A stretch of DNA of 32,000 bases from Candidatus Nitrospira inopinata. Its GTDB lineage: Bacteria; Nitrospirota; Nitrospiria; Nitrospirales; Nitrospiraceae. A program made the position numbers and the translations under genes. The notes beneath the pieces were generated by a model. It was given only the letters and a program-made list of their open reading frames with translations, ran no database searches and was not told the origin of the DNA. Location of the stretch: positions 1,590,001 to 1,622,000 of the forward strand of contig NZ_LN885086.1 in NCBI RefSeq assembly GCF_001458695.1. The letters are read 5' to 3'. How positions within the stretch are numbered: position 1 is the stretch's first letter; each line of letters starts with the position of its first letter. Positions 17,653 through 32,000 of this stretch are shown here, in pieces.

Positions 17653-17775
17653 GGTCTTCTCCCTCCTTCTGAAAGCGGACATGCTTTCGTTTCCAATGTG
17701 GCAGGAAGAAGTAACAAGACCCTAAAGTCATCATGAATCGCCGGTTAAATCTGTTTGGGTCGTGGTCGCGAAGGC

Positions 17776-17847: not shown

Positions 17848-18546
17848 CTATTGATCGACGAGCTTGTAGCCCAAAGACTTGATGGAGACGATGGCCTCGT
17901 TCAACAGGGGGATTTTCAGCTTGAGGCGGCGGACGTGCACGTCCACGGTTCTTGTCGTGCCGTAATAGTTGTAGCCCCATACGGCGTTGAGCAGGATGTC
18001 GCGCGTCAACACGCGGCCCGGATGGCGCAAGAGCTGCTCGAGCAAGCCGAATTCTTTGGCGGTGAGCGACACCTCTTTGTCGTTCACGGTGACTTCGTGA
18101 CGGATCGGATCCAGGACGAGCGGACCGAAGCGGAAAAACGATTGCGGATGGTCGTCCGCTCGTTCAAGACGCCGAAAAAGCGCCTTGACTCTGGCGACCA
18201 GCGCCTTGGGACTGAACGGTTTCGTCACGTAGTCGTCGGCGCCCAGCTCCAGCCCGATGATCGTATCGGATTCCTCGGATTTGGCGGTCAGCATCATGAT
18301 CGGAAGGAGCGCGGTCTCGGGGGCGTTGCGAAGTCTTTTGCAAACCTCGACTCCGTCCATTTCGGGAAGCATGAGATCGAGGATCACGAGATCCGGCTTG
18401 TCGGACTTCACGAGCGTGAGGGCCTCGACGCCGGATTGCGCGACGGTCGTGCGAAATCCCCCGTTCTCCAGATAGAGCTTCACAAGCCGGACGATGTCCG
18501 GTTCATCCTCGACGATGAGTATTTTCTTCGGCGTTCGGCTCGTCAT
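17848..18546 (-). CDS. OmpR/PhoB-family response regulator (orphan, no adjacent kinase)
   Basis: Receiver domain (ILIVEDEPDI...DLVILDLMLPEMDG...MLTAKSEESD...GADDYVTKPFSPKALVARVKALFRR) plus a winged-helix domain (RTVDVHVRRLKLKI). The receiver/linker motifs are PhoB-like. Confidence 0.9.
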   Translation of the reverse strand: MTSRTPKKILIVEDEPDIVRLVKLYLENGGFRTTVAQSGVEALTLVKSDKPDLVILDLMLPEMDGVEVCKRLRNAPETALLPIMMLTAKSEESDTIIGLELGADDYVTKPFSPKALVARVKALFRRLERADDHPQSFFRFGPLVLDPIRHEVTVNDKEVSLTAKEFGLLEQLLRHPGRVLTRDILLNAVWGYNYYGTTRTVDVHVRRLKLKIPLLNEAIVSIKSLGYKLVDQ

Positions 18547-18828: not shown

Positions 18829-20262
18829 TCAGAGCCATGCCCGCTTCCCCCGCTTGAGGAGGGTGTTGAGCAGCTCCGGCAGTTCATCGCGGAGCAACTC
18901 TCGTCGTTGGCGCTGGCGTTCGATCAGCCTTCCCGCCACGAAGGCCGCCCGGTCGCCGCTCGATTGTTTGAAGAACGAACGGATGTAGGACTCCGCGGTC
19001 ACGGAGTCCTGATAGGCGCCCAGCACGTCCTGAACCGCCCGCGCCTGTTTGATGAACCGGGCCGCCGGCTTGCCCGCCGACCAAAGGGCCAACTCGGCGG
19101 CGTAGCGCGCGCGCTTGGTCTTGATGCGGACGGCGTGGAGGGCCGCGTCGTTCGGCTTCGGTCCGATGTGCCGCACGGCTTTCCGAAGCTTTTTGAATTC
19201 CCGTTTGGCGAGCGTTTGGAGCGTTTCGGGCGTCGCGGCCTCCACGACCGGCGGATCGTGAGCGGCCTGTTCGAGCCGATGAACGAGGTCGAAATACCGC
19301 GCGCTGTTCAATTCGCTCAGCACCGCCTGTTGAGCCTGCGCCCGTTTCGACCGCAGATGCGCCACGAATTGCGCCAGCGGTTTGCGGTCGGGCGCGTCCA
19401 ATCGGCCGATTTCTTCCTGAAAATAGGCGATTTGCACATCAAGGTCACGGGCTTGCCCCAGGCATTCGCCGAGCCAGGACAGTTCCTCCGCCAGCGATTC
19501 GTTCCAGTCGTGCGGAAGGATGGGGCGGGCGGCGCGAAGCACGGAACGCAGCCGCCTGGCGGCCACCCGCATTTGATGGAGACTCTCGCTCTCCGTCCCG
19601 AGCCTGGCGCCGGGATCGTGGGCCGTCAGCCAGCGGACGTGCCGGATCAACGTCCACTTGAGGTGATCCACGATCGGCGCGTCGGCCTCCGGCGGCTCGG
19701 CCGATTCAGGCGCAGGGAGCGACAGGGCGCGAAACAGCTTCGGCCGCCCGTCGTGATCGCGGGCGCCGGCTCGACGAACGAGACGCGCGACGTCGCGCAT
19801 CTCCTCTTCGTCGGCCTTGAGCGATTCAACTTCGAGCTCCCGAAACCGCAGGATGATGTGGCCGTCCTTGACCACCGTCACGGCGTCGAGCGACACCTCG
19901 GCGATGGGACGTCGCTTTCGTCGCACGACCATGCCGGCTCGTCGGACGCGCAGGGTGACAAGCGGAACAAGCCGGCGTTGCCTGAGGTGCAGCACAAGCA
20001 GGTCGAGCAACGTCGGCGGGGGAATAGGATGCCGACCGACGATCTCGACTTCCTGCCGGTCGTCGCACAGGGGAAGCTTGAGCTGCCAGGCCCGCTTTCC
20101 TCGCTCCACTCGATAGCGCAGCGTGATGCCCGCGTGGGTCAAATCATATGAGGGCGTGTCGTAATAGGTGGAGACGATCAACTTGGGCTGCCGGGGAGTC
20201 CCTAAGGCAGGCGGCAGGCGAAAATCGGGACCGACCGTGAATTTGATTTCGCGCTCGACCAT
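18829..20262 (-). CDS. CYTH-CHAD two-domain protein (triphosphate tunnel metalloenzyme domain + polyphosphate-associated CHAD domain)
   Basis: Start set at ATG 20262 (MVEREIKFTV, the ExExK CYTH motif). The helical C-terminal half carries LHQMRVAARRLRSVLR and VRIKTKRARYAAE, which are CHAD-like His/Arg-rich repeats. Confidence 0.8.
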   Translation of the reverse strand: MVEREIKFTVGPDFRLPPALGTPRQPKLIVSTYYDTPSYDLTHAGITLRYRVERGKRAWQLKLPLCDDRQEVEIVGRHPIPPPTLLDLLVLHLRQRRLVPLVTLRVRRAGMVVRRKRRPIAEVSLDAVTVVKDGHIILRFRELEVESLKADEEEMRDVARLVRRAGARDHDGRPKLFRALSLPAPESAEPPEADAPIVDHLKWTLIRHVRWLTAHDPGARLGTESESLHQMRVAARRLRSVLRAARPILPHDWNESLAEELSWLGECLGQARDLDVQIAYFQEEIGRLDAPDRKPLAQFVAHLRSKRAQAQQAVLSELNSARYFDLVHRLEQAAHDPPVVEAATPETLQTLAKREFKKLRKAVRHIGPKPNDAALHAVRIKTKRARYAAELALWSAGKPAARFIKQARAVQDVLGAYQDSVTAESYIRSFFKQSSGDRAAFVAGRLIERQRQRRELLRDELPELLNTLLKRGKRAWL

Positions 20263-20422
20263 GGACGTGAGACTCCGTGATCGAGTGTGAGGGAACGCAG
20301 AATGATCAACGGGCTTCATTGTCGGCGTCGGCAAAGAAGACACTTGTCAGTATCGATGAGGAAGCGGATGAACGCAAGAGACCGGAGCGTCGATCCGAAT
20401 CGGGGCATGCCGCGCCCGGTTT

Positions 20423-21238
20423 TCAGAAGTGATAGGCCGCTCCCGCCGCGACGTGAAAAATGCTGTACAGGCCGCTGATCCCGAACGTTTGATCAAGTGT
20501 GCTGACGTGGGCCAGATTGTATTTCCCCTCGGCAAACAGGGCCCAATGCTGGGTCGCCAAGTATTTGAGGCCGAACTGGGCGTTGAGGCCCGGCACGAAT
20601 TGCCGGCCATCGATTTGACCGGAACTCAGGAAATAAAATGCGCCGACGCCGACGCCGACGTAGGGTTGAACGACCGAGCCGGGGTAGCGGGCGATCAGAT
20701 TCAAGGCAAAGGTGATGACACGAAGATCCGACTCGTTCAAAGCTAGCCGTGATTTGCTGCTCACGGAGGCGGGGCAGTTGGGCGGAGGCCCGATCTGCGC
20801 ACAGTCCGTTGCTGGTGCGGGCGTGTTCGGCTGATAGGTGACCTGGTGGGAGGTATCGAGCTTCTGCGCCTTGATGTCCGGTGTGGTCGTGAACACTTCC
20901 GCTTCCACGCCGAGCCACGGCAGTTTCATGTCATTAAAAAAGTATCCGACTTTGCCCCCGTACATGGCGGCACTCTTGAGGGAGATGTCGGAGGTGGTGA
21001 ACTGCTGATAGAGGGTGCCTCGCCCGAGGGAGTTGAGCGGCTCATCGGCTTGAGGAAATTGCTGCCTGGCCAGCCGTTCGCCCCTCAAGGGCATGGTCAC
21101 GTCGTTGAAATCCCCGCCGGTACTATAGCCCCCATAGCCCGCCACGTACCATTCGGCCCGTGCCTCGCGGCCTCCGTCCAGGATCAGAATGCCGAGGGCC
21201 CCCACCACTGCCACTATCACCTGCTGGACGGATCTCAA
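20423..21238 (-). CDS. Outer-membrane beta-barrel protein (OmpA-like/OmpW-like small barrel)
   Basis: Alternating beta-strand pattern with a C-terminal ...AAGAAYHF terminal Phe. Preferred start is TTG at 21238 behind AAGAGGAGG, giving signal peptide MRSVQQVIVAVVGALGILIL...ARA. The track start at 21310 is also TTG, and an ATG at 21304 has no SD. Confidence 0.7.
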   Translation of the reverse strand: MRSVQQVIVAVVGALGILILDGGREARAEWYVAGYGGYSTGGDFNDVTMPLRGERLARQQFPQADEPLNSLGRGTLYQQFTTSDISLKSAAMYGGKVGYFFNDMKLPWLGVEAEVFTTTPDIKAQKLDTSHQVTYQPNTPAPATDCAQIGPPPNCPASVSSKSRLALNESDLRVITFALNLIARYPGSVVQPYVGVGVGAFYFLSSGQIDGRQFVPGLNAQFGLKYLATQHWALFAEGKYNLAHVSTLDQTFGISGLYSIFHVAAGAAYHF

Positions 21239-21342
21239 AGCCTGCCTCCTCTTGTTGTTGACCCTTTGATTTGATAGGCGACGATCATATAAAGCTCCGC
21301 GCATTATCAAAGAAAGCCGGTAACGGGCCCATGACGGGGTGA

Positions 21343-21359
21343 TTAACTTTCGGTTAACT
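21343..21359. repeat. Direct repeat TTAACT-N5-TTAACT (11-bp period) upstream of the OMP gene
   Basis: gaTTAACTttcggTTAACTcc, read directly in the gspC-like/OMP intergenic region. Confidence 0.6.
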
Positions 21360-21425
21360 CCTCCGCGGTCTCTTGCGCGGCCGCTTGGGGAGATTCATGG
21401 GAGTGTCGAGACCGAGAGAGAAAGG

Positions 21426-22325
21426 CTACTGCAATTCGTAGATCACCGTCGTGGGCCGGTTGTGGCGCACCACGTCGACTTTGACCACGCGTTCGTTGAG
21501 AAGCTGCTTAAAGATCGTGAGCATTTTTTCCTGATCGTGAATCTCGACCCCGTTAACGCGCTGGATGACGTCGCCGTACTGAAACCCCGCCTTGTCGAAA
21601 AAACCGGCCGGCAGCACGAAGTCAAATCGAAATCCCTGAAACGCCCCGTTTTTCAAAAAAGGGATGATATAGGCCTGCTGCATCAGTTGCGACGGATCGC
21701 CGACAGCTTGGGCCGCTTCACGGCGATCGAGGATGCGCTTGATAGTCGGGGCGAAAGGCTTAGGAGGGGGGGGAGGCGCGTAGGTGGGCGAGACGGGATG
21801 AGCGGGATCCTCCGACGGCGTGGTCAGCGGAAGCCATTCTTCTTGATCGTCTTGGCCGATGACGATGCCCTCGCAGGTGATGGAGCGAATCTCGCCGACC
21901 TCCGGAATTTCCTCATGGAGGTGAAACAGGCTCTGCTGCTTGGACGCGACGTCCTCAAGAACGGCGGAGTCGTGGCGGTCTCCCAAGACGACGCCAAGGA
22001 GCCGAACTTTCTTGGCCGCTTCAAGAGGAGGTTTCGGAGGGGCGGTCGCGAAGCCCGATTCCGCCGACCAGGTCTGCGAGGATGAGATAGGCAGTTCGAA
22101 CAGCCCGCTGTTCTTGATGGAGTCGACAAACTGCGGCGAATCGTCATCGCCGGTAAGCGACGGCTCGCCGGGCGCGAGTGTCGCCGATTCGGCGGAAGGA
22201 ATCACGGCCAATTGATGCTCGACGATCGCGTTGATCGAATGGGCCAACACGAGGGTGGCGCCGGTGACGGCTAGGATCATCAGCACGATGCGACGGAGCC
22301 TCGTCGAGTTTGTGCGTCTCAACAT
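21426..22325 (-). CDS. GspC-like protein (N-terminal TM anchor, HR-like region, Pro-rich linker, C-terminal PDZ), orphan
   Basis: MLRRTNSTRLRRIVLMILAVTGATLVLAHSINAIVEHQL, then VRLLGVVLGDRHDSAVLEDVASKQQSLFHLHEEIPEVGEIRSI (HR-like), PPPPPKP, and PDZ-like GFRFDFVLPAGFFDKAGFQYGDVIQRVNGVEI. No gspD-M genes in the window. Start is ATG 22325 or GTG 22340. Confidence 0.65.
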   Translation of the reverse strand: MLRRTNSTRLRRIVLMILAVTGATLVLAHSINAIVEHQLAVIPSAESATLAPGEPSLTGDDDSPQFVDSIKNSGLFELPISSSQTWSAESGFATAPPKPPLEAAKKVRLLGVVLGDRHDSAVLEDVASKQQSLFHLHEEIPEVGEIRSITCEGIVIGQDDQEEWLPLTTPSEDPAHPVSPTYAPPPPPKPFAPTIKRILDRREAAQAVGDPSQLMQQAYIIPFLKNGAFQGFRFDFVLPAGFFDKAGFQYGDVIQRVNGVEIHDQEKMLTIFKQLLNERVVKVDVVRHNRPTTVIYELQ

Positions 22326-22426
22326 GAAAGGTGGTCCCACCGGTCGAAGTGACCCTATGCCAATTCAGATTCAAGCTCAAGAGGAGGACAAGCGGTTTCC
22401 AGGGAATTAACGACTCCCCAAGTTGT

Positions 22427-22447
22427 CAGTAACGCCGGTGTAACAGG
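22427..22447. promoter_or_regulatory. Tandem GTAAC direct-repeat element (site B): CAGTAACGCCGGTGTAACAGG
   Basis: GTAAC at 22429 and 22440 (11-bp period). Lies in the divergent region, ~102 nt from the gspC-like ATG and ~131 nt from the tpsB ATG. Shares CAGTAACG, TGTAACA and a downstream ACGA with site A. Confidence 0.45.
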
Positions 22448-22577
22448 CAGACGATAAGAGTAGCCGTCCTTGAAGGGATTGCCGAACGGATGCGTCGGGA
22501 TCATACGGAGGAAATAGGGCGTGGATGCCGCCGGACCGGCTGAACAAGGCGGGCCTCCATTTCGAAAGTGATCAGGC

Positions 22578-24413
22578 ATGGTCAAATGGTTTGGGGGCAT
22601 GACCGTGGCGATGGGGGTCATCATAGGCATCGGCATTGCGGAAGGTCGAGCCGGGTCCGAGGTGCTCGTCCGACCCGTGCTTGCAGATGGGCCGATGATG
22701 TCGGCGTCATCGCAGTCCGTCTCGCCGTCCGACGCGACGGCGCCGTCCGAGCCGCCAGTTCAGCCTCGTTCGCGCGCCGACGAGAATCCGGCGGCGCCTC
22801 CATCGAGTGAAGGGGGGCCGGATGGCTTCACCATTCAAGAATTCGTGGTGGACGGCAGCACCCTCTTGTCGCGCGAGAAGATCGACGATGTTCTTGGCAA
22901 GTTTAAAGGGCGGGGCAAGACGATCAAAGACATCGAGCGGGCTCGAATCGAGCTGGAAAAGGCCTATCAGCAATTGGGGTACCCGACGGTCTTGGTCGTG
23001 GTGCCGGAGCAGACGGTCGAGCAGGGAACGATCAGAATGGAAGTCATCGAGGGGCGGCTGTCGAAAGTCGAAGTGACCGACAACCGCTACTTCTCCAAGT
23101 TGAACATACGCGGAAAGCTGCCGTCGGCGCGCCTGGGCGCGCTGCTCTATGAGCCGGACTTCGTCAAGCAGTTGGACGCGGTCAATGCCAATCCCGATCT
23201 GCAAGTCGCGCCCATCCTCAAGCCGGGCAGTTCGCAGGGGGACGTCGAGTTGGAACTGCGGGTCAAGGATCGGCTCCCGCTGCACGCCAAAATCACCGCG
23301 GACAACAAGGGGCCTTTCACCACCCCGCTGCATCGTCTGACGTGGGAAGCGCAATACGCCAACATGTGGGACGCCGATCATATCCTCACGCTGCAAACCA
23401 CGCAGACCCCGACGGATTGGGGAGCGGTGCAGGCCTACGGGTTCAGCTATGTGGCGCCGATCGGTTGGCCCGACCGGCTGTTGGCCGTCTATGCGTCCAA
23501 GGTCCTGAGCAATTCCGTATTGGCCGGGACGTCTCTGCCGATCAGCGGAGGGAACGTGGCGGTGGCCGGCAACGCAACCATGGCGGGGATGCGCTATCTG
23601 TTTCCGATTTTCAAAGAGAGCGCGTTCAAGCATCAGCTCTCCCTCGGGCTCGACTTCAAGCGGCTTGAGGAGACGGAAGCGACCTTCCCCGGCAACCTTG
23701 GCACGGCGCTGGTGTTGGGGCCGATTCAATATCTGCCGGCATCGATCGGTTATGCCGGCGCCTATCCCGATCGGTATGGAACCACGACGTTTAACGCCAC
23801 CGTGCTGGGGTATGTCGCGGGGCTGATTCCCGGAGGGCGAAAACAAGACTTTCGAGGAGACCCGAACAACATCGATCAGAATCCCGGCCAACGGGCTTCG
23901 TCAAGCGGGACGTTCGGCGTCATCAAAACAAGCCTCGGCCGCATGCAGCCGTTGCCGGGAGGGTTTCTCCTGTCCGGCCGTGTCGACGGCCAATGGGCGA
24001 CCGAACCGCTGATTCCCGCGGAATCCTATTTCGCCGGCGGCATGGATACCGTTCGCGGATACGTCCAAAGTTCCGCGCTCGGAGACAACGCCTTTTTCTG
24101 GCGCGCCGAGGTCTATACGCCCGATCTGCCGTCCGTTCCGTTGGATTACTTCTGGCAACGGCGCCGGAGCTCGGAATGGAAAGCAACCGTCAAATTTCTC
24201 GGATTCTACGACTATGCCCGACTGTGGGTGCAGAAGGCTCCCGCCGGGCAAACCGATCTGTTCCGCTTGGAGGGCGTGGGTGCAGGCCTTCGCCTGAGAG
24301 TCGAGCCGATCAACTTGACGCTTTCGTTCGATCAGGCCGTGGCGTTGCAAGACGCCGCGGATACCAAGAAGGGGGACACCTTCGCGCATTTCCTCTTGAG
24401 CGTCGGATTTTAA
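22578..24413 (+). CDS. Two-partner secretion transporter, ShlB/FhaC/HecB family (TpsB, Omp85 superfamily)
   Basis: 611 aa. POTRA region (FTIQEFVVDGSTLLSREKIDDVLGKFKGRGKTIKDIERARIELEKAYQQLGYPTVLVVVPEQTVEQGTIRMEVIEGRL), a beta-barrel and terminal ...LLSVGF. 17 nt upstream of tpsA. Confidence 0.9.
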   Translation: MVKWFGGMTVAMGVIIGIGIAEGRAGSEVLVRPVLADGPMMSASSQSVSPSDATAPSEPPVQPRSRADENPAAPPSSEGGPDGFTIQEFVVDGSTLLSREKIDDVLGKFKGRGKTIKDIERARIELEKAYQQLGYPTVLVVVPEQTVEQGTIRMEVIEGRLSKVEVTDNRYFSKLNIRGKLPSARLGALLYEPDFVKQLDAVNANPDLQVAPILKPGSSQGDVELELRVKDRLPLHAKITADNKGPFTTPLHRLTWEAQYANMWDADHILTLQTTQTPTDWGAVQAYGFSYVAPIGWPDRLLAVYASKVLSNSVLAGTSLPISGGNVAVAGNATMAGMRYLFPIFKESAFKHQLSLGLDFKRLEETEATFPGNLGTALVLGPIQYLPASIGYAGAYPDRYGTTTFNATVLGYVAGLIPGGRKQDFRGDPNNIDQNPGQRASSSGTFGVIKTSLGRMQPLPGGFLLSGRVDGQWATEPLIPAESYFAGGMDTVRGYVQSSALGDNAFFWRAEVYTPDLPSVPLDYFWQRRRSSEWKATVKFLGFYDYARLWVQKAPAGQTDLFRLEGVGAGLRLRVEPINLTLSFDQAVALQDAADTKKGDTFAHFLLSVGF

Positions 24414-24430
24414 CGCGATCGGAGCAATAC

Positions 24431-27400
24431 ATGGGATCGACCGGGAGAGCGACCAAACGATGGGAAACGGCCGTTCGGAAAGCAACCGTCGGATGGACCG
24501 CGACGGGGATGCTGGCGTGGGGACTCTCAGCAGGTCTCGCCGTTCCGCTCCACGCGGAGGTCGTCATCACGGATGTGGTGCACGGCAGGGTGGAGGTCCG
24601 CCCGCCGCAGACCCAGCTTGACGGTCGAATCAGAACCGACGTCGTGCAGTCCACGGCTCGGGCGATCGTGCACGCGAGCGATTTCAACATCGCGCCCAAT
24701 CACGTGGTCAACGTGATTCAACCGAACGCGTCGGCCTGGATGCTGGCCCGCGTGTTTGGACCGGCGACCCACATTGACGGCGCACTTAATGCCACCGGCT
24801 CGCTCATTCTTCTCAATCCCAACGGAGTCTTGATTGGACCGACGGGCCAAGTGAACGTCGGCGGCCTCTTCGCCGCCTCGACGTTGGCGATGAGCAACGG
24901 CAACTTCCTCAACGGCGTTTACCTGTTTCAGGACAGTGGAACGAACGGCGTTATTCGCAATGCGGGAGCGATCAACGCGGGCGTGGAGGGGGTCTATCTC
25001 TTCGCGCCGAACGTGGAGAACGCCGCCACCGGCGTCATCACGAGCGCCAACGGGCACGTGACGTTGGGAGCGGGGAGAACGGCGTTTCTCTCCAATCGGC
25101 CTGACGGCAGGGGGTTTTTGGCGGAAGTGACGGCGCCAGCCGGCGAGGCGCTGAATCTGGGCCAATTGTTGGCCGACGGCGGTCAGGTGACGTTGGCTGG
25201 GCGGGTCGTCAATCAGGGCAATCTGGTTCAGGCCAACAGCGTCGTGCAGCGCAACGGCCGAATCGAACTGATCGCGAGCGAGCGGATCACTCTGCAAGCC
25301 GGCAGTCGCACGAGCAGTACGGGCGGCGAGGTCGGCGCCCATGGCGGCACGATCGTGGCGCGCGCGGCCGATCGCGATGCAGGCGGAACTCGCATCAACG
25401 GCGCGGTGACCGTTGAAGCCGGGGCGGTTGTGGACGTCGGCCCCGCTGCCGGAGGCGTCGCCGGAGAGGTGTGGCTCGGCGGGACCGTGACGGCCAACGG
25501 CCTGGTCCATCGGCTGATTCCCAATCAAGTCACGCTCGGCGACGGTCAGCTCTTGGCCTTGGCGTCAAATTTGGGACGGGGAGAAGTCAACGTGTTGGCG
25601 ATGGATGACATTCACGTAACCGTCGGCCCGTCGGCTCCTCTCGATTTTTTGGCGATTCCCTCGGGGCAGAGGGGGACCTTCCATCTGCACGCGGGCCGTA
25701 ACCTCACCTGGACCAACAGCCGATTTGCCAGCGAGGGGGTTCCATGGAACATCGTCGCCAGGGCGGGGAACGATGTGACCGTCAACGCCAGCGAAGTCAG
25801 CACGGCGGGCGGGGCCTCCATTCATCTCCATGCGGGGCGGGATCTTTCCTTGGTCGATGGAAGCTTGACCTTTGCTCGCGTGCACACCGCGAATCTTGGC
25901 CATGAAATTCTCGGGGGCGATATCAGCCTCACGGCCCTGCGGGATATTGTGGCTCCGAGTCCGTTCGAACGGTATAGCGACGGGGTTTCTCTGCCGGGCA
26001 TTCACGTTGGACTCCCCGGCAACTTAACGATTCGCGCCGGGCAAGATCTCCGAGGGCCGGCATCGCCGAATCCGACGGTCAGGCCTCGAGCGTTCGGCTT
26101 TACCCTGCAAGGCGGGATTGCCGACGTAGCGGCGGGGCGCGATATTGGAAGTGACACAGCGCCTGTCAATCTGGTTCTTGGAGGGTTCACGGACAATGGC
26201 GACGGGACCTATACTGTGCCGGCAGCGGCTGCAAATCTCAATGCGGGCCGGTCGATCTATTTTAGCCTCGCGGAAGATTTCGGCCTGCGGGAAGCAGGGG
26301 TCTTGACGGCCAATGGAACGACGAGAATCGATGCCGGCACGGTGCTGAGGGCTCCATTGATCACCACAACCAGGACCGATGAATCGACAGGGTTGCCGAT
26401 TCACATTTTACCGACTCAATTAAACCTCGCAGCGCGGACCGGTGACGTGCTCATCCAACAGGATCGGCCGACCGGGGTATTCGCCAATGAACGAAGGCTG
26501 CTCCCCTCGGTCTTTTCCGCCAGGGCCGATCAAGGGAACGTGACTTTTGTAACCGGCAGCTCCCCACTGCGATTCTGGCCCTCGAACGAAGGGCGGATCC
26601 AGATTCATGCGCATCAGGCGATCAGGGGATTGGGGCCGTTGCAAACCGTGCCCGATCAAAATTCCGTGCTGATCTTTACCGGCCTCCCCAGCGATCCAGC
26701 CGCCCGCTGGGTTCGCGTCAGCCGAAGCGAAGCGTTGGCGGATCCCTTGTTGGCAAGGTGGTTTTACCAATGGGGAGACCTCAGCTTCGTAAATGGAAGC
26801 CCCGTGAGCCCCCTTCCTCCCGGTCTCGTCGGCTTGCCCCCGGCAAGTATTCGTGAGAAACCCCTCATCCTGCAGCGAAGCACATCCCCCGGGATTGTCA
26901 CATTGTACCCAGGCGACATCCGATCATTGGTGGGAGGAGATGTCACCGAACAAACCTTGGGGGTGGCTCTTCAAACTTCTGCGCCGAGCTCGGTCGGCCG
27001 AGGCATGACCATCGCCATGTCAACGGAGGAGGGGGATATTACCTCGTTGCAGCTCAATTTTCTGAGCCCGTTTTTGAGACAAACCACCATCAGTTCCGGG
27101 GGCGATATTCGGAGCGTCCTGCTCAATATCTCCACGCCGCAATTGCCGGGTGACCGGCCGTCGGCGATCGTTCATGCCGGGGGCTCGATCGATTTAACGA
27201 GAGTGCCGGGTTTCAATACATCGGGTATCCGGTTTTTCGGCAATGGGACTGCGGAAGTCCGCGCCAACGGGAATCTGAATTTGGGCGACAGTTTTGGAAT
27301 CGTCCATCTGCTTGGCAATACCCGTGATGCGGTCGCCCAACGAAGACAAGGAGGAGTATTGGACATCGGAATCGGCGGGCGCATCGAGATGACCCAATCT

Positions 27401-28924
27401 CAGATCGCGACCTTCAACGGGGCGGCGATCTTCATCCATGGAGCGGACGGAGTGCGTGTTGCCGATGATGCCGGCCGAATGATTCCGGGAGCGGTCGAAG
27501 TCAGAACTTTACTTGTCGATCGAGACGGCGCCATGGTCTTGGCCTTGCCGAATGAGAGCGGGACAGCCGTTCCCATTCAAGCCTATAGAACGGTTCTTCC
27601 CGTCGGTCAAACGACCGAGCAAAACGTGTTTACGGCGCAGGACGTGTCGAACGGCCGGGTTGAATTGGTCTGGAAACCGTTGTTTGTCGAGCAGACGGGG
27701 CAACTGTTTTTGGTCGGAGGCGAGCGGGTTCGTCAAGGAGAGCAAATCGTGTTCCAAGAAAAGGTGGTCGCCGTCGATTTGAATCCGGCCAGGACGGCCG
27801 ATGGCACTCCGATTCTTGTTGATGGAAGGCCGGCCCTGGTAGACGGCAGAATCATGCTCGAAGTCGGCGGGCAGCGGGTGTCTGTGGTGACGCCGGTCGG
27901 CGGGCGGGTCAACATCGGCGGCACGGTGGCGACTCGGAATGCAGAGCAAACCGGCATTGTGACCCTGCGAGGCGGCGACATCACGATTCTCTCGACCGGC
28001 GATGTCGATGTGAACCGCTCCCGCGTCGGCACCTTCGATACCGGCAATATCCTGATTAAATCCACGTCCGGGACGATCAATGCCGGTAGCGGAAGCAGAA
28101 ATGAGCGGTCGCTGTTCGTCATCGACAATGGAGATGGAACCAGCACCCCGGCCACAGTGCCGGGCAGCGGGATCTTCACCTGGGAGCGGGACGATCCAGA
28201 CATGACGACGTTACCCTTTCCCAAGTTTGATACGCCGGCGATGGAGGCGTTGAAGGCGAACATTGCCAAGCGGCGATTCCTTGGGCGCGACACGAGCGAC
28301 CTCGAAGCTCAGTTCAATCGATTGAGCAGAGAGCGGATGGTGGAGTATGACCGCATTTTCGAAGAATTCATTGCTGCGCCGTTCGGCCCGGGGAGCCGTC
28401 CCCTCCAGCTCGGCGATATCAGTCTGATTGCCGCCAGAAATATCGATGTGCCGTCGGCCGGGATCAGGGGCAGGCGCATTAATCTGGAGGCGGGAGAATC
28501 ATTGAATCTCTTAGGCGGGTTGATCATCGGAAAGACCACGTTTACTGCCTCGACGGTTTCCGGTTCTATCGGCGCCTTTGCCGGTGCTGCAGCAGGATCT
28601 GTGGGGGGCGCATCCGTCTCAGCGGCGGGCGGCGCCGGAGGCAGCTCGGTCGGGGGCTTAAGCGGGGTGACCTCGACGGTCTCGGCGACCTCGGCGGCGA
28701 CGAGTACAACCTCATCCACCGCTGCCAAGTCTGTCGAGCAAGTTCAGCAAACCGCCGAAGAATCGGCAGGAACAGCAGCGCCGGCTGCTCAACCGGGCGC
28801 TGGCGACAGACGACAGGTGGCTTCGGCCGATACGGAAAAAAGCAAGAAATCCCAAATGACCCGGTCGATTCGCATGGGACGCGGAGTCGTCATTCAAGTC
28901 GACGTCAAGCCGGCGGCTCAATAA
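24431..28924 (+). CDS. Large TpsA exoprotein (filamentous-haemagglutinin-type TPS domain + beta-helix repeats), 1497 aa
   Basis: Start set at ATG 24431 (GGAG 6 nt upstream). The earlier part of the track ORF overlaps tpsB out of frame. Long signal peptide, then TPS domain motifs (VIQPNASAWMLARV, LILLNPNGVLIGPTGQVNVG), many G/N/V-rich beta-helix-like repeats, and a Gly/Ala/Ser/Thr low-complexity tail. Confidence 0.9.
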   Translation: MGSTGRATKRWETAVRKATVGWTATGMLAWGLSAGLAVPLHAEVVITDVVHGRVEVRPPQTQLDGRIRTDVVQSTARAIVHASDFNIAPNHVVNVIQPNASAWMLARVFGPATHIDGALNATGSLILLNPNGVLIGPTGQVNVGGLFAASTLAMSNGNFLNGVYLFQDSGTNGVIRNAGAINAGVEGVYLFAPNVENAATGVITSANGHVTLGAGRTAFLSNRPDGRGFLAEVTAPAGEALNLGQLLADGGQVTLAGRVVNQGNLVQANSVVQRNGRIELIASERITLQAGSRTSSTGGEVGAHGGTIVARAADRDAGGTRINGAVTVEAGAVVDVGPAAGGVAGEVWLGGTVTANGLVHRLIPNQVTLGDGQLLALASNLGRGEVNVLAMDDIHVTVGPSAPLDFLAIPSGQRGTFHLHAGRNLTWTNSRFASEGVPWNIVARAGNDVTVNASEVSTAGGASIHLHAGRDLSLVDGSLTFARVHTANLGHEILGGDISLTALRDIVAPSPFERYSDGVSLPGIHVGLPGNLTIRAGQDLRGPASPNPTVRPRAFGFTLQGGIADVAAGRDIGSDTAPVNLVLGGFTDNGDGTYTVPAAAANLNAGRSIYFSLAEDFGLREAGVLTANGTTRIDAGTVLRAPLITTTRTDESTGLPIHILPTQLNLAARTGDVLIQQDRPTGVFANERRLLPSVFSARADQGNVTFVTGSSPLRFWPSNEGRIQIHAHQAIRGLGPLQTVPDQNSVLIFTGLPSDPAARWVRVSRSEALADPLLARWFYQWGDLSFVNGSPVSPLPPGLVGLPPASIREKPLILQRSTSPGIVTLYPGDIRSLVGGDVTEQTLGVALQTSAPSSVGRGMTIAMSTEEGDITSLQLNFLSPFLRQTTISSGGDIRSVLLNISTPQLPGDRPSAIVHAGGSIDLTRVPGFNTSGIRFFGNGTAEVRANGNLNLGDSFGIVHLLGNTRDAVAQRRQGGVLDIGIGGRIEMTQSQIATFNGAAIFIHGADGVRVADDAGRMIPGAVEVRTLLVDRDGAMVLALPNESGTAVPIQAYRTVLPVGQTTEQNVFTAQDVSNGRVELVWKPLFVEQTGQLFLVGGERVRQGEQIVFQEKVVAVDLNPARTADGTPILVDGRPALVDGRIMLEVGGQRVSVVTPVGGRVNIGGTVATRNAEQTGIVTLRGGDITILSTGDVDVNRSRVGTFDTGNILIKSTSGTINAGSGSRNERSLFVIDNGDGTSTPATVPGSGIFTWERDDPDMTTLPFPKFDTPAMEALKANIAKRRFLGRDTSDLEAQFNRLSRERMVEYDRIFEEFIAAPFGPGSRPLQLGDISLIAARNIDVPSAGIRGRRINLEAGESLNLLGGLIIGKTTFTASTVSGSIGAFAGAAAGSVGGASVSAAGGAGGSSVGGLSGVTSTVSATSAATSTTSSTAAKSVEQVQQTAEESAGTAAPAAQPGAGDRRQVASADTEKSKKSQMTRSIRMGRGVVIQVDVKPAAQ

Positions 28925-28954
28925 AGAGCCGCTTGCTAGAAAGGATGAAGCGGC

Positions 28955-29731
28955 ATGGATATGAGCTCGGGCGGCGTCGCGTTTGCGTTGAGTCACGCGA
29001 CGCTGGAAGGAAAGATCACCATTTCGGTGCTGCTCGTGTTCTCTCTGGTCAGTTGGACGATCATCGTCAACAAGTTTCGCCAACTGGGGAAAGCCAAGAG
29101 ACGAAACGGGGCGTTCTTGGAGGCCTATTCCAAATCCCAGGCATCGCTCAGCCTGTTCGGCAAAGGGCCCATCAAGGAGCTTCAAGGGTCCCCGATGTAC
29201 GACCTCTATTACGGAGGCTGTGAAGAGCTCAAAACCCAGCAAGAGAAGTACGGAGCCGAGAGGGTGCCCCGGCACGGCATGAACGCCGTGCGGATCGCCT
29301 TGGAACGGGTGCTGGGGGAATCGGCGGTGAATTTGGAATCGGGGATGATCGTCTTGGCCACCGCCATCAGCGGCGGGCCGTTCATCGGACTGTTGGGCAC
29401 GGTCTGGGGCGTGATGGATACGTTCTCCGGCATCGGTCGCGCGCAACAGGCCACCCTCACCACGATGGCTCCCGGCGTGGCCTCGGCGTTGATCGCCACG
29501 GTGGCCGGGCTGATGGTCGCGATCCCCTCGCTGTTTTGTTACAACTATTTGGTCACGAAAACCAAAACTCTGACGATGGAGCTCGACAATTTCGCCGCTC
29601 ATCTGGAGACCGTATTCATGGCCGAGTATCTTCAGGAGAAAAACGGGGCGACGGACGATGACGTGGAGGATTATCGTCCGGGCGGCCACCGGCAAGAAGC
29701 GGAACCCTCCGGCGCGGCGACGGCGCATTGA
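28955..29731 (+). CDS. exbB: MotA/TolQ/ExbB-family proton channel protein
   Basis: 258 aa with three TM segments. LATAISGGPFIGLLGTVWGVMDTF and APGVASALIATVAGLMVAIPSLFCYNYL are canonical ExbB/TolQ motifs. Starts 30 nt after the tpsA stop. Confidence 0.9.
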   Translation: MDMSSGGVAFALSHATLEGKITISVLLVFSLVSWTIIVNKFRQLGKAKRRNGAFLEAYSKSQASLSLFGKGPIKELQGSPMYDLYYGGCEELKTQQEKYGAERVPRHGMNAVRIALERVLGESAVNLESGMIVLATAISGGPFIGLLGTVWGVMDTFSGIGRAQQATLTTMAPGVASALIATVAGLMVAIPSLFCYNYLVTKTKTLTMELDNFAAHLETVFMAEYLQEKNGATDDDVEDYRPGGHRQEAEPSGAATAH

Positions 29732-29810
29732 TGACGCGGCGGTCGTGAGAGACGATGGAGCGGAAAAACGAACAAACGGACACACGAAACAAGGCGGATA
29801 GATCGGAGCC

Positions 29811-30227
29811 ATGAGACGATTTTCAAAGAAAACACACGGCGCCGTCGCCGACATCAATATCACGCCGCTGCTCGATTTGGCCTGGGTGCTGCTGGTCATC
29901 TTCATCATCACCACGACCGCGATGGTGCAGGGCATCGAGCTGAAGCTGCCGGAATCGACGCCGCACGAAACGGACATGGAGAGCAATACCCCGACCCTCT
30001 CCGTCAAGAAAAACGGCGACGTGTACTTGGACGAAGAGCGGGTGAAACTTGGCGATCTGGAAAAGCTGATTCGCGACCTGAAAGCGGCCAAGGGCGGCAA
30101 GCTGCCGCTGGTGCTCCGCGGCGACGCGGGCGTCGAATATAAACATGTCGTGGCGGTGTTGGACATTTTGCAACGGATTCCCGTCGAAGATCTCGCCCTG
30201 GCCACGAAACCGTTCAATGAGCCCTAG
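29811..30227 (+). CDS. exbD: ExbD/TolR-family biopolymer transport protein
   Basis: 138 aa. ADINITPLLDLAWVLLVIFIITT carries the conserved Asp in the TM helix, followed by a periplasmic domain. Confidence 0.9.
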   Translation: MRRFSKKTHGAVADINITPLLDLAWVLLVIFIITTTAMVQGIELKLPESTPHETDMESNTPTLSVKKNGDVYLDEERVKLGDLEKLIRDLKAAKGGKLPLVLRGDAGVEYKHVVAVLDILQRIPVEDLALATKPFNEP

Positions 30228-30236
30228 AGAACCGTG

Positions 30237-30339
30237 AGGCGTGAAAGATCAGGCGTGAAAGGTTACAAGACTCGCATCGTGGGTTCCGCGCACACTCCTC
30301 CCGCACGAGTGACGTTTCACGCTTGACGTTTTACGTGCC
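30237..30339. repeat. Composite repeat in the exbD-tonB spacer: AGGCGTGAAAG x2 (14-bp period) facing two inverted copies (ACGTTTCACGC, ACGTTTTACGTGCC, also 14-bp period)
   Basis: Direct copies at 30237-30247 and 30251-30261. Inverted copies at 30312-30322 and 30326-30339. The arms can pair into a long two-tier imperfect hairpin. Confidence 0.7.
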
Positions 30340-30344
30340 CCAAG

Positions 30345-30992
30345 ATGGCCGGGTATCGAGGATTTGAAAAAAAGAAGAGCAAGCTCGGCACGACGTTGCT
30401 CATTGTCGGTTTGATTCACGTCGGTATTGCCGCGGGGCTTTACTGGGTTTCACAGACCGAGTGGGGCCAGAACCTGATCAAGGTGTACAAGCTCACCGCC
30501 TTCGAGAAGAAAGAACCGCCTCCTCCGCCGGAGAAAGAGCCTGAACCGGAACCCGAACCGCCCAAGCCGGAACCCAAACCGGAGGCTCCCATGCCGGAGC
30601 CCGAACCGCAAGAGGCTCCTCCGCCTCCGCCGCCGGTGACCGAAGCGCCTCCGCCGCAGGTGGCCAGTCTCCCGCCGCCGACCAGCCCCGATCCGTTCGC
30701 CATCGGCAAGAGCCGCAACCGGTTTGCGGGCTACTCGGACATTCTCACGGCCATGATCCAGGCCAAGTATCAGCAACCGCCTTCGCTACCGGACGATCTG
30801 GAATATGCCGTGCTCTGCGAGCTGGTGATCGATGAGCAGGGGAGGGTCTTGCAATATCGCCTGGTCAATTCGTCCGGCAGCCTGCTCTTTGACCAATCGG
30901 CCCTTGATGCCCTGTCCAAGCTCACGCAGGTTCGCCCCCCGCCGGAAGGGATGGATCGCACCGTCATCGTGAAGTTTTTCCCGCCGTCGTGA
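30345..30992 (+). CDS. tonB: TonB-family energy transducer
   Basis: N-terminal TM (TTLLIVGLIHVGIAAGLYWV), Pro-rich rod (EPPPPPEKEPEPEPEPPKPEPKPEAPMPEPEP...PPPPPP), and TonB_C-like end (VLCELVIDEQGRVLQYRLVNSSGSLLFDQSALDALSKL). No SD is visible, so the start is uncertain. Confidence 0.8.
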   Translation: MAGYRGFEKKKSKLGTTLLIVGLIHVGIAAGLYWVSQTEWGQNLIKVYKLTAFEKKEPPPPPEKEPEPEPEPPKPEPKPEAPMPEPEPQEAPPPPPPVTEAPPPQVASLPPPTSPDPFAIGKSRNRFAGYSDILTAMIQAKYQQPPSLPDDLEYAVLCELVIDEQGRVLQYRLVNSSGSLLFDQSALDALSKLTQVRPPPEGMDRTVIVKFFPPS

Positions 30993-31308
30993 CCCGTGAC
31001 AGTTGACCGGTTTCTCAAACTCATTCCGACTTACTCCTTCGATCTTGCGACTTCTCTTCATGGGGCAGCCGATCTCTCCCACGCTCAAAGTTAACGGGTT
31101 CTAAAGAATCGACTCATCGCCGCGTAACCGGGGGAGCGTATAACCGCAAGGTCCGGGAGGGTTCTCCTGTCCTCGTTCGATGAGCGCGACCATCCAAGGA
31201 GAAAAAGAATCCGTCGAAGGGTCTTGAGAGAAGTTTAACGGAACAAAAAACGGATCCTTACGAGCCGGTAATGCCGACATGGGAAAAAGATCGCGTGCCG
31301 CGGGAATG

Positions 31309-31328
31309 AAGGATTGCAAGGATTGCAA
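31309..31328. repeat. Tandem 9-mer AAGGATTGC x2 (+AA)
   Basis: Read directly in the low-GC 470-bp spacer upstream of the last gene. Confidence 0.85.
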
Positions 31329-31463
31329 TGAAATGACGACGATGACGGGAAAGGAGGTGAGGGACGGCTCGTTAACTGGAAAGGCAGAGTCAAGAAAGCG
31401 TGTGGCGGTGTGAGGGAAGAAAGAAAAATCGTCGGTCAATCACTTTCTAAGGAGGATGATGAC

Positions 31464-32000
31464 ATGAAAGTCGGTGCAACAATCAAGCAGACGGTTGCGG
31501 CGTTCGCCGCGGTAGCCGGATTGGCGGTCGTCGGTCTGCCGTCTCCGGCGTCGGCACTTGAGTTTCCGTTTGGAGATCTCGCGTTTGTTGTGTATGGCGG
31601 CGATACCGAGCGGTATGAAAATATGGGCACGGGTTCAGTGGCATGGCTTGAAGAGACACCGAGGTCGTTTGGAACGAACATCGCGTCAGTTCTTCCTGTC
31701 CTTCAACAAGGTGCCGCGTTGGGGGTTCGCTGGGCGTTGTACGGGTCCACCGCTGATGGCTATCACATGTATATGACCTCACAAGCTAGAACCATTACTC
31801 CCCAAATCTTGGAAAACATATTTCCGACCCAAGCTGCCGAGCGGTTTCTTGAGTGGGGCCAGAGCCGGCTTCCCTTCGTGAGCGGAGGCATTGGGAATAC
31901 CTTTGCCAATAATCCCTTGCTGCTTCCCGCCTCCAATCCTCAGTCCTTTACCAATTTTGTCGGAAGAGAGGGGCAGTTGGGTGGCTATACCCCCTTCCAG
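31464..32000 (+). CDS. Secreted hypothetical protein, partial (continues beyond window)
   Basis: Not in the track because it is open-ended. ATG at 31464 after TAAGGAGGATGATGAC. Manual translation gives MKVGATIKQTVAAFAAVAGLAVVGLPSPASALEFPFGDLAFVVYGGDTERYENMGTGSVAWLEE..., a Sec signal ending ASA-L. The frame stays open for 179 codons to the edge. Confidence 0.65.
   Translation, partial: MKVGATIKQTVAAFAAVAGLAVVGLPSPASALEFPFGDLAFVVYGGDTERYENMGTGSVAWLEETPRSFGTNIASVLPVLQQGAALGVRWALYGSTADGYHMYMTSQARTITPQILENIFPTQAAERFLEWGQSRLPFVSGGIGNTFANNPLLLPASNPQSFTNFVGREGQLGGYTPFQ

Follow-up and report, generated by a model that had tools for sequence, protein, structure and literature searches.

Two-partner secretion joined to a dedicated Ton/Tol-type motor in Nitrospira: a conserved unit with a candidate motor-substrate contact in the TpsA tail

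A 32,000-nt stretch of the Candidatus Nitrospira inopinata genome (contig NZ_LN885086.1, positions 1,590,001 to 1,622,000 of the forward strand), referred to here as the window, encodes a two-partner secretion (TPS) pair, the exporter TpsB and the exoprotein TpsA, followed directly by the three subunits of an ExbB-ExbD-TonB motor. Coordinates are positions within the window. We conclude that TPS pair and motor belong together as a conserved unit and are not neighbours by chance, and that the locus is a Nitrospirota variant of the cluster type known from Pseudomonas aeruginosa as pdtA/pdtB-exbB2-exbD2-tonB4, an arrangement already published for Proteobacteria. A near-invariant peptide close to the C-terminus of TpsA resembles, in its pattern of residues, a TonB/TolA box. 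Tentatively, and with a little less than even confidence, we propose a Pho-regulated envelope module in which the dedicated Ton/Tol-type motor would hold or pull TpsA by this tail, gripped in the periplasm by the TonB/TolA-like protein.

TPS transport is considered, according to PMC9355242, to proceed without external energy. Although two-partner secretion is the standard example of export that costs no energy, one subfamily is hard-wired to its own proton-driven motor, with examples in Pseudomonas, Burkholderia, Ralstonia, Variovorax, Cupriavidus, Klebsiella plasmids, methanotrophs and every Nitrospira species genome surveyed with enough flanking sequence. For this subfamily, the dedicated motor and the tail motif put energy-free transport in question. 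New here are the extension of the arrangement to Nitrospirota, its tie to phosphate limitation and a specific candidate contact between motor and substrate. This candidate contact makes testable the question of the Ton system's presence, raised by the P. aeruginosa case known since 2009, and is of relevance to the ecology of Nitrospira in oligotrophic and engineered nitrifying systems and to phosphate-starvation virulence in Pseudomonas.

The genes tpsB, tpsA, exbB, exbD and tonB all lie on the + strand in that order, according to a six-frame list of open reading frames (ORFs) and a Pfam scan, with positions and identities as the initial annotation had placed them. The Omp85-type exporter TpsB (22578-24413) matches POTRA_2 (6e-19, 68 bits) and ShlB (3e-15, 57 bits) and carries the loop-6 VRGY motif, within a stretch MDTVRGY that is invariant in the TpsB alignment; its closest relatives are Nitrospira/Nitrospirota proteins. 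After a spacing of 17 nt follows tpsA (24431-28924), encoding a 1497-aa exoprotein made up of a TPS domain, a beta-helix and a tail predicted to be disordered. TpsA matches the Pfam TPS domain (2e-16, 61.4 bits; cut-off 33.5) and TIGR01901 (57.9 bits; cut-off 29.1), the top PDB matches of its N-terminus are the secretion domains of the adhesin HMW1 (5e-21) and of HxuA, and homologues of its C-terminal region bear DUF3739. A TPS-domain exoprotein encoded next to a POTRA and Omp85 exporter with the VRGY motif identifies the pair as a two-partner (type Vb) secretion system. The motor comprises the stator subunit ExbB of the MotA/TolQ/ExbB family (28955-29731; Pfam MotA_ExbB 4e-30, 105 bits), the ExbD/TolR-family subunit ExbD (29811-30227; Pfam ExbD 4e-26, 92 bits) and the TonB/TolA-like force transducer (tonB, 30345-30992; Pfam TonB_2 6e-10, 39.5 bits, and TonB_C 4e-8, 34 bits), all scoring above cut-off.

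The tpsA stop codon is 30 nt from the exbB ATG, and a consensus scan found no + strand terminator-like site between the two genes, as the initial annotation had stated, nor 3' of tonB. Upstream of tpsB and divergent from it are a gene for a GspC-like protein and then one for a small outer-membrane beta-barrel, both recovered in this order by NCBIfam, PDB and Pfam matches. No TonB-dependent receptor or plug domain was found among the Pfam-scanned ORFs of the window, in agreement with the initial annotation, and the gene calls for the following 9 kb contained none either. A hairpin that had been described around the exbB ribosome-binding site is present at 28928-28954 (+), where GCCGCTT (28928-28934) pairs with AAGCGGC (28948-28954), the loop holds AAAGGA and the fold energy is -11.7 kcal/mol. 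It is lineage-specific, however: other Nitrospira tpsA-exbB junctions are mostly 12-40 nt long and carry a GGAAAGGA-type ribosome-binding site without a hairpin. The hairpin was rejected as a general functional element, being confined to the closest relatives. An Rfam scan of positions 20000-32000 gave a single match, at chance level.

The association of these genes was followed across species by a TpsB-profile scan of one genome per species, which gave 61 loci, nearly all from Nitrospira and including the complete N. moscoviensis genome. The window proteins were mapped onto these loci, and counts were restricted to loci with enough flanking sequence. The common order is barrel and GspC-like gene on the - strand, then tpsB, tpsA, exbB, exbD, tonB, a PEP-CTERM protein gene and a gene for a 532-aa PstS-like protein on the + strand. 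TpsA, ExbB, ExbD and TonB occur together in all 40 loci with at least 7.5 kb downstream of tpsB; with at least 2.5 kb upstream, the GspC-like gene is found in 49 of 49 and the barrel gene in 48 of 49; and the PEP-CTERM (d249) and PstS-like genes are present in 34 of the 35 loci with at least 10 kb downstream. The neighbourhood survey proposed in the initial annotation, which asked for TPS genes followed by Ton genes and for a co-occurring GspC/PDZ gene, thus comes out in favour of both in Nitrospira. Two loci indicate that this linkage exceeds frozen synteny. In L056 the genes are rearranged (tpsA, PEP-CTERM, PstS-like, tpsB, exbB, exbD, tonB, gspC-like) and the full set is retained, and in L070, from a sister clade, ExbB is 63% identical and the spacer of the TonB-like protein has a very different composition, and TpsA is still encoded directly before the triad.

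The components of the locus evolve at unequal rates. Median identity to the window protein is 92% for ExbD, 84% for ExbB and 75% for the TonB-like protein, then 55% for TpsB, 49% for the barrel, 39% for the GspC-like protein, 35% for TpsA, 31.5% for the PEP-CTERM protein and 30% for the PstS-like protein. Loci L001 and L003 display the division most sharply. Their ExbB proteins are identical, and the surrounding backbone has a DNA identity of 90-97%; the block that runs from the final ~45 nt of tpsA up to and including tonB shares 92.9% of nucleotides (98-100% in protein), whereas the barrel/gspC/tpsB/tpsA and PEP-CTERM/PstS-like cassettes are only 29-52% identical in protein. The cassette breakpoints lie at the edges of the motor (window-equivalent ~20400-32900), leaving the tail codons of tpsA within the conserved motor block. 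From these alignments, the pattern resembles allelic cassette exchange of surface parts, with a constant motor between two exchangeable, co-varying cassettes of surface or secreted parts.

Several loci depart from the common layout in smaller ways. In L021 (N. moscoviensis), a 117-aa ORF (17175-17528) that from its sequence could form a four-helix bundle is inserted between exbB and exbD, and similar exbB-exbD gaps of 0.5-0.8 kb occur in L011, L043, L049 and L060. After tonB, the same locus holds possible toxin-antitoxin-like ORFs, judged by eye, and a duplicated tonB 3' fragment (19798-20040) within 19034-20555; these insertions displace the PEP-CTERM and PstS-like genes. A paralogous Nitrospira TpsB (42% identical) in L063 (142-8007) has no TpsA or motor nearby, and its neighbours are CBM96-like and PEP-CTERM beta-propeller proteins.

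The end of TpsA contains the candidate contact. In an AlphaFold2 model of the last 348 residues, built on a 16-sequence alignment, block-mean predicted local distance difference test (pLDDT) values are mostly 74-94 over fragment residues 1-247 and fall to 22-37 over the last 101 residues (fragment 248-348). The folded part gave no Foldseek match to the PDB with E < 3. The tail (residues ~1397-1497; 28619-28921, +) is predicted to be disordered, being S/G/A/T-rich and then K/D/E-rich, and it holds the motif GRGVVIQVDVKP (residues 1483-1494; 28877-28912, +), a candidate TonB/TolA-box-like strand. Aligned tpsA 3' ends contain a near-invariant peptide, RGVVIQVDVKP, with the consensus [KG][RH]GV[VIL]IQV[DE]VKP, 3-10 residues from the C-terminus, and a six-frame search found it exactly once per locus in 49 of 49 loci with a tpsA 3' end. 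This invariance holds despite the low median identity of TpsA. Codon positions 1 and 2 of the motif vary by 2-3% and position 3 by 41%, which indicates selection on the peptide and not on an overlapping DNA signal; with disorder predicted around it, the motif behaves as a short linear motif. L070 retains it as RRGVVIQVEV. L056 alone differs, with DKVRIKVETKP, and there TonB is 48%, ExbB 85% and ExbD 93% identical to the window proteins.

The C-terminal domains of TonB and TolA take hold of disordered boxes by beta-strand augmentation before pulling on them, as described for the TonB box, the TolB N-terminus and colicin boxes, and colicins are drawn through outer-membrane proteins by this means. 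The mature N-terminus of E. coli K-12 TolB, read from the genome, is EVRIVIDSGVD. It shares with the TpsA tails the pattern V-x-I-x-[VI]-[DE], so that EVRIVID is comparable to VVIQVD and to the VRIKVE of L056. Two other partners were considered. A TonB-box-like strand at the N-terminus of TpsB, proposed in the initial annotation, was rejected, since 17 TpsB orthologues show no conservation over their N-terminal ~80 residues. The PDZ domain of the GspC-like protein was disfavoured as a binder of the tail, its PDZ region being poorly conserved and the tail invariant. Lacking conservation, both are unlikely partners of an invariant peptide.

By sequence, the motor subunits are more Tol-like than Ton-like. 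With NCBIfam models, the window ExbB scores 163 bits for TolQ (cut-off 221) against 112.6 for exbB TIGR02797 (cut-off 206), and ExbD scores 83.5 bits for TolR (cut-off 127) against 45-51 for ExbD models (cut-offs 123-216); the TonB-like protein reaches 29.7 bits for TolA (cut-off 59) and 34.2 for tonB_Cterm (cut-off 27.1). The best-scoring solved relatives of all three proteins are likewise Tol proteins: ExbB matches TolQ with 110 bits and ExbB structures with 69-76 bits, ExbD matches TolR slightly ahead of ExbD, and the TonB-like protein's C-terminal domain is nearest to P. aeruginosa TolA domain III (E 0.02, vs 0.4-0.5 for TonB). The architecture of this 215-aa protein consists of a membrane helix, an EP/KP-rich spacer (residues ~56-110) and the C-terminal domain; H25, L32 and S36 of the SHLS motif are present and the first S is replaced by V21. 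Its Pro-rich spacer is TonB-like and differs from the long helical domain II of TolA. The setting also differs from Tol-Pal, as the triad stands behind a TPS pair in an apparent phosphate-starvation operon; no tolB or pal was found in ~45 Nitrospira loci, and ybgC and cpoB are likewise not adjacent. For one Nitrospira genome, six TonB-dependent receptors and four TonB/ExbB/ExbD sets are reported, which makes the window triad one of several motors.

The ExbB of the window is also encoded on metagenome contigs of Nitrospira type. Its clade is rather isolated, with 168 representatives at E <= 1e-30 in an exhaustive representative search. Some of the contigs bearing ExbB representatives at <= 50% identity are short, and others lack TPS genes. 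The two motor subunits ExbD and ExbB point in opposite directions. Nitrospira ExbD is 43-46% identical to the TPS-linked ExbDs of Proteobacteria, 32-38% to those of Verrucomicrobiota and 26% to E. coli TolR, whereas for ExbB the Tol-like triads of Verrucomicrobiota are nearer than the TPS-linked ExbBs of Proteobacteria.

In P. aeruginosa, PA0690 (tpsA), PA0692 (tpsB), PA0693 (exbB2), PA0694 (exbD2) and PA0695 (a tonB homologue) lie beside the type II secretion system (T2SS) Hxc and are phosphate/VreI regulated; the precedent that had been given in the initial annotation is therefore correct in gene order, Hxc neighbour and regulation. The PUMA3/PhoB locus PA0674-PA0699 as a whole comprises vreAIR, hxc, lapA, pdtA, phdA, pdtB, exbB2, exbD2, tonB4 and the PA0696 porin. 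Its Hxc system exports PstS-family proteins that reach surface appendages, and its exbB2-exbD2-tonB4 motor is described as 'still uncharacterized'. An association of PUMA3, TPS, ExbBD and PA0696 was reported for other Proteobacteria (Llamas et al., 2009). None of the papers searched describes a link between a TpsA and a TonB box, or a function for exbB2/tonB4.

A search beyond Nitrospira with the C-terminal 348 aa of TpsA gave 19 matches, mostly fragments, and one distant match, P0408, precedes a 601-aa DUF2341-LamG-MotA_ExbB fusion. Twelve plasmid or chromid records with this DUF2341-LamG-ExbB motor type were collected and nine were inspected. TpsB is encoded immediately upstream of the motor in eight of the nine replicons, which come from alpha-, beta- and gammaproteobacteria (Methylosinus, Aquabacterium, two Klebsiella plasmids, Cupriavidus, Burkholderia arboris, Ralstonia and Variovorax). 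These eight have the order TpsB-ExbB-ExbD-TonB-Porin_5-hypothetical-YbjN/PPIase, usually with an adjacent TpsA. Several include a unit of STN-domain, extracytoplasmic function (ECF) sigma factor and FecR genes, T2SS genes adjoin the cluster in Methylosinus and in Cupriavidus (where the set includes a secreted-type nuclease gene), and long PBP_like_2 proteins adjoin it in Methylosinus, B. arboris and Ralstonia. Between the Nitrospira and proteobacterial clusters, TpsB is 30% identical (E 2e-59), ExbD 43-46% and ExbB 35%. The 532-aa PstS-like protein and the 573-aa binding protein of Methylosinus give the same partial PBP_like_2 match, with no blastp match between them at 1e-3. The TPS-linked proteobacterial ExbB is fused to an N-terminal extension of ~330-350 aa, DUF2341 plus a laminin-G/concanavalin-like domain, that is presumably periplasmic (L074 998-2803; L076 8948-10762; L075 13005-14666) and is absent from Nitrospira ExbB.

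The Nitrospira and proteobacterial clusters have several features in common and differ in others. In Nitrospira, as in the literature description of PA0674-PA0699, a TPS pair is joined to an ExbB-ExbD-TonB triad, with phosphate induction shown in P. aeruginosa. Shared with pdt/exbB2-type clusters more widely are a nearby porin, one or more T2SS components and a PstS-family secreted protein, as well as a DUF3739-like C-terminal region of TpsA ending in a low-complexity tail with a conserved strand. Nitrospira differs in its gene order (tpsB-tpsA-motor), in having a lone GspC-like gene instead of a full T2SS, in its PEP-CTERM proteins, small barrel and OprO/P-type porin, and in lacking the DUF2341-LamG extension and the STN/ECF/FecR, Porin_5, YbjN, PPIase and PA0697-like genes.

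The tail strand of the motor-linked proteobacterial TpsAs is of the type xIITVEVLGYG and lies 30-60 residues from the end, compared with RGVVIQVDVKP at 3-10 residues in Nitrospira. The individual strands are PSIITVEVLGYG in Methylosinus, PSTISVEILGYG in Klebsiella, PSIITVQVLGYG in Ralstonia, PSVFTVRVLGFG in Variovorax, WTISVQVEGFG in B. arboris and GILTVELLSLG in Aquabacterium. Their core I-T-V resembles classical TonB boxes, of which that of FhuA is DTITVTA. A second similar strand (e.g., VQVLGAG, FQMIGNG, VSLLGFG) occurs further downstream in the TpsA tails of L080, L084, L085 and L086, and the proteobacterial tail may, on this pattern, carry two box-like elements.

The neighbouring genes and a shared promoter repeat place the locus in a probable phosphate-starvation regulon or island. 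Upstream in the window are a PhoX alkaline phosphatase gene (12159-14300, +; Pfam PhoX 2e-155) and, on the - strand, a gene for an OmpR/PhoB-family response regulator (17848-18546; Response_reg 4e-33, Trans_reg_C 4e-22). Directly downstream of the regulator, OlsB-type (Acetyltransf_5) and OlsA-type (PlsC-type) acyltransferase ORFs (16073-17682, -) are probably genes for the synthesis of ornithine lipid. OlsB and OlsA make this lipid, which is free of phosphorus. Because the two longest acyltransferase ORFs overlap, olsA likely begins near 16880. A CHAD-CYTH protein is also among the neighbours in the Pfam scan. On the other side, the PEP-CTERM protein gene d249 (31464-32000, +) is cut by the window end, and beyond it follow the 532-aa PstS-like protein, a second PEP-CTERM-like protein and an OprO/P-type porin; in all, two PBP_like_2 (PstS-type) proteins, a Porin_O_P porin and another Trans_reg_C protein are encoded outside the window. 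The 532-aa protein retains phosphate-binding blocks, such as SRRAGSGT aligned with PstS structures, and no DING structure was among its PDB matches.

In the tpsB promoter, a candidate Pho box (22418-22445, +) is formed by three units at 11-bp spacing (CCAAG..., cagTAAC and gtGTAACA), and ~8 nt downstream of it the hexamer GATAAG (22453-22458, +) would serve as the -10 element. The OmpR/PhoB-family regulator is the candidate regulator of this box. Direct repeats with a period of ~11 bp are typical of boxes of the OmpR/PhoB family, and the repeat resembles the PhoP box TTAACA of B. subtilis and the Pho boxes of cyanobacteria. Within the 32-kb window TAAC-N7-TAAC occurs twice (0.05 expected), upstream of tpsB and of the barrel gene; the latter element (21344-21358, +), between the GspC-like and barrel genes, is at the same place in several relatives. 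De novo k-mer counting found GTAACA in 51 of 54 gspC-tpsB intergenic regions, and 52 of 55 tpsB promoters carry TAAC-N7-TAAC in + orientation, with a density of 2.4 per kb vs 0.029 elsewhere (83-fold). The 52 aligned promoters have the consensus CCAAT-N7-rTAAC-N6-GTAACA, then CCGrTA. In L001 the pstS-like promoter and the region upstream of the second PEP-CTERM/porin pair carry the repeat as well, and in a matrix scan the pstS-like promoter is the second-best site in L001 and L003 (TCAAT-N6-TTAAC-N6-TTAAC). It is these phosphate-scavenging neighbours, together with the repeat common to the pstS-like promoter, that make the regulon assignment probable. The probable place of the locus in such a regulon, on which the initial annotation had not remarked, is the strongest clue to its function.

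Two further observations concern phosphorus. Divergent from the pstS-like gene of L001, with a repeat element common to both, is a gene for a 247-aa Trans_reg_C protein (19383-20126) with no clear receiver-domain match in its N-terminal half; on its domain content it may be an atypical PhoB-like regulator. In the Methylomagnum plasmid record L082 (11602-22293), a DUF2341-ExbB/ExbD/TonB triad lies less than 10 kb from PhoX and another alkaline phosphatase, a further tie of this motor type to phosphorus scavenging.

The orphan GspC-like protein (21426-22340, -) has a membrane anchor, a homology region (HR), a Pro-rich linker and a PDZ domain. The whole protein aligns with NCBIfam GspC_delta (E 3e-32, 112.8 bits; cut-off 150) and gives 20.1 bits for Pfam T2SSC and 23.5 bits for PDZ_2 (cut-off 27); its closest solved relatives are OutC (1.4e-4), PulC and EpsC. 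It resembles GspC in anchor, HR, PDZ and full-length family match, and differs in scoring below the family cut-offs and in occurring without exception alongside the TPS-motor cluster. In L056 the orthologue exceeds the Pfam T2SSC cut-off, with 51.6 bits against 27. That protein (13521-14690 in L056; 389 aa) has a duplicated HR region with two T2SSC stretches and is encoded downstream of tonB on the same strand. No other gsp gene was found among the scanned window ORFs, which agrees with the orphan status first assigned to it, or among the L001 gene calls, and a survey with the window proteins found no other T2SS gene within 10 kb in the Nitrospira loci. The initial annotation had cast the protein as a periplasmic adaptor of the motor. 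This fits poorly with its fast evolution, PDZ included, and its covariation with the variable cargo cassettes and not with the motor: between L001 and L003 it is 30% identical, while tail and TonB are conserved. These sequence comparisons make a cargo or secretion-specificity factor the more likely role.

In the mechanism that we propose, tpsB and tpsA would be co-transcribed with their own proton-driven motor of ExbB/TolQ-, ExbD/TolR- and TonB/TolA-like proteins. TpsA would be exported through TpsB N-terminus first, so that its beta-helical shaft stands outside the cell, and its flexible tail would remain threaded through TpsB into the periplasm, like the FhaB prodomain. There the C-terminal domain of the TonB/TolA-like protein would capture the tail motif by beta-strand augmentation, and the motor, driven by the proton-motive force, would hold TpsA and pull on it. 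On this view TpsA would be an energised surface filament, tethered to the cell and possibly retractable, that acts under phosphate limitation alongside the PstS-like protein, the PEP-CTERM proteins and the phosphate porin to acquire phosphate or remodel the surface, and the GspC-like protein would match variable secreted cargo to the secretion route. Of the composite envelope machine put forward in the initial annotation, the conserved TPS-motor unit is retained and gains a candidate link on the TpsA tail; its coupling through the TpsB N-terminus or a GspC-like adaptor is not.

Known systems offer partial parallels. In colicin or pyocin import and at TonB boxes, as in the mechanism proposed here, a disordered strand motif threaded through an outer-membrane protein is grabbed by TonB or TolA. 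In those systems, however, the box is at the N-terminus of a transporter plug or of an incoming toxin, whereas the candidate box would lie at the C-terminus of a self-made exoprotein passing through the Omp85-type TpsB, with no 22-strand receptor. The Tol-Pal system offers a like pattern of contact, TolA domain III binding the disordered TolB N-terminus by strand augmentation and pulling. The HxuA-HxuB-HxuC system of H. influenzae likewise links a TPS exoprotein, genetically and functionally, to TonB-dependent nutrient uptake; HxuC is a classical TonB-dependent transporter and motor genes are absent, while the Nitrospira operon has the motor and no such transporter. In Bordetella FhaB, the C-terminal part of a TpsA protein stays periplasmic, threaded through TpsB, and controls retention and maturation. 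The FhaB prodomain is ~1200 residues long, is degraded and has no known Ton/Tol engagement, in contrast to the ~100 disordered residues with a short motif in Nitrospira.

A stronger form of the proposal, which we regard as speculative and improbable, is that TpsA works as a retractable 'fishing line': the tail box would be gripped and the filament reeled back through the Omp85 channel by strokes of the motor, carrying phosphate-loaded partners. The PstS-like and PEP-CTERM proteins, or bound mineral or organic phosphorus, would be drawn in with it. If true, a type Vb transporter would here be put to energised, retrograde use for the first time, and the orphan ExbB2-ExbD2-TonB4 systems found in Pseudomonas, Burkholderia, Klebsiella plasmids and elsewhere would gain a function.

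Several findings weigh against a motor dedicated to TpsA in a phosphate-regulated module. The likeness of the tail to a TonB/TolA box involves just four to five positions, and the Nitrospira and proteobacterial tails share only a core of hydrophobic-hydrophobic-polar-V-x-hydrophobic. Covariation of tail variants (R/H, V/I/L) with TonB columns gave no signal, the variation being too small. In P. aeruginosa, mutants in tpsA, tpsB and the tonB homologue showed no loss of virulence in zebrafish and so lend no functional support. As for regulation, the Pho-box assignment was made by motif sharing alone and is a candidate one; no TAAC-N7-TAAC site was found upstream of phoX, nor the repeat in L056, whose upstream region differs. 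The remaining points concern the company that the motor keeps. The next ExbB relatives (41-50% identical) belong to Tol-like triads, mostly of Verrucomicrobiota, without TPS genes, and one such outgroup triad adjoins a TolB-like (PD40) gene; the Methylomagnum motor has no TPS genes and stands beside PhoX and alkaline phosphatase; and in the proteobacterial clusters Porin_5 follows tonB as faithfully as TpsB precedes exbB, which makes the porin an equally good candidate partner of the motor.

This last point leads to the main rival, in which the motor energises another outer-membrane partner (a phosphate-type porin, the small barrel or a TonB-dependent receptor encoded elsewhere) for phosphorus uptake and the TPS pair is merely co-regulated. 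We consider it rather unlikely, while recognising that Porin_5 follows tonB in every inspected TPS-bearing proteobacterial cluster, that a Porin_O_P gene lies four genes downstream in Nitrospira and that Nitrospira genomes encode TonB-dependent receptors elsewhere; the Methylomagnum arrangement is also of this kind, and HxuABC demonstrates that a TpsA can serve TonB-dependent uptake. In Nitrospira, however, variable genes stand between tonB and the porin gene, which has a repeat element of its own, and no plug or TonB-dependent receptor domain was found in the cluster proteins scanned. Another client would also leave unexplained why an invariant TpsA tail motif travels with the motor block and why the tpsA-exbB junction spans just 12-40 nt. 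A housekeeping Tol-type motor for envelope integrity or division, standing behind the TPS genes by inherited synteny and functionally unlinked to them, would account for the higher TolQ/TolR/TolA scores, for the high conservation of the motor (ExbD and ExbB above all) among fast-evolving neighbours, and for the nearest outgroup motors, which stand alone in housekeeping contexts, the one beside the PD40/TolB-like gene included. Even so, we judge it unlikely: those scores all fall below the NCBIfam equivalog cut-offs, no tolB/pal follows in the ~45 loci, the spacer is of the EP/KP-rich TonB type and not a TolA helical domain, and ExbD is far closer to TPS-linked ExbDs than to TolR. The linkage, moreover, survives the L056 rearrangement, persists in the L070 clade and recurs as the same pairing in three proteobacterial classes, a Nitrospira genome is reported to hold four motor sets, and no room for a conserved promoter was detected upstream of exbB.

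Little credence is given to two readings that keep TpsA as the client and change what is done to it. The initial annotation had raised energised secretion, in which the motor powers or gates the export of TpsA through TpsB, or its release. The operon linkage is compatible with this, and in Myxococcus the TonB-dependent transporter Oar is needed for PopC secretion. A dedicated motor is also notable for a transport otherwise regarded as energy-independent (PMC9355242). Known Ton/Tol transducers, however, pull towards the inner membrane, which is easier to reconcile with retention or retraction than with outward export; the candidate handle sits on the last end of TpsA to leave the cell, and TpsB has no conserved periplasmic box. 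Alternatively, the tail motif could be a site for a periplasmic PDZ protein or protease (the GspC-like PDZ or a tail-specific protease) that controls maturation or degradation independently of the motor. There is an analogy in FhaB, whose prodomain maturation and degradation involve CtpA/DegP; PDZ domains bind C-terminal strands by strand addition, and a PDZ protein is encoded divergently in 49 of 49 loci. But the motif is not at the extreme C-terminus, as the 3-10 residues that follow it vary in length and sequence, and the GspC-like protein, PDZ included, is too poorly conserved (median 39%) to match an invariant motif, as its divergence between L001 and L003, with tail and TonB conserved, also illustrates.

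The small barrel gene (20423-21310, -; Pfam OMP_b-brl 3e-8) encodes a protein with a signal peptide and a C-terminal F, both read from the sequence, and its true start is probably downstream of the longest-ORF start. Elsewhere in the window, a second protein with TonB_C/TonB_2 domains (341 aa; 2153-3178, -) is encoded beside a YceI-like gene (1464-2156), with no adjoining exbB/exbD. In a HisKA_3/HATPase_c histidine kinase (8359-9492), the N-terminal region is Rossmann-like (GFO_IDH_MocA/DapB_N) and takes the place of membrane helices; a LuxR-type response regulator (9479-10150) is encoded next.

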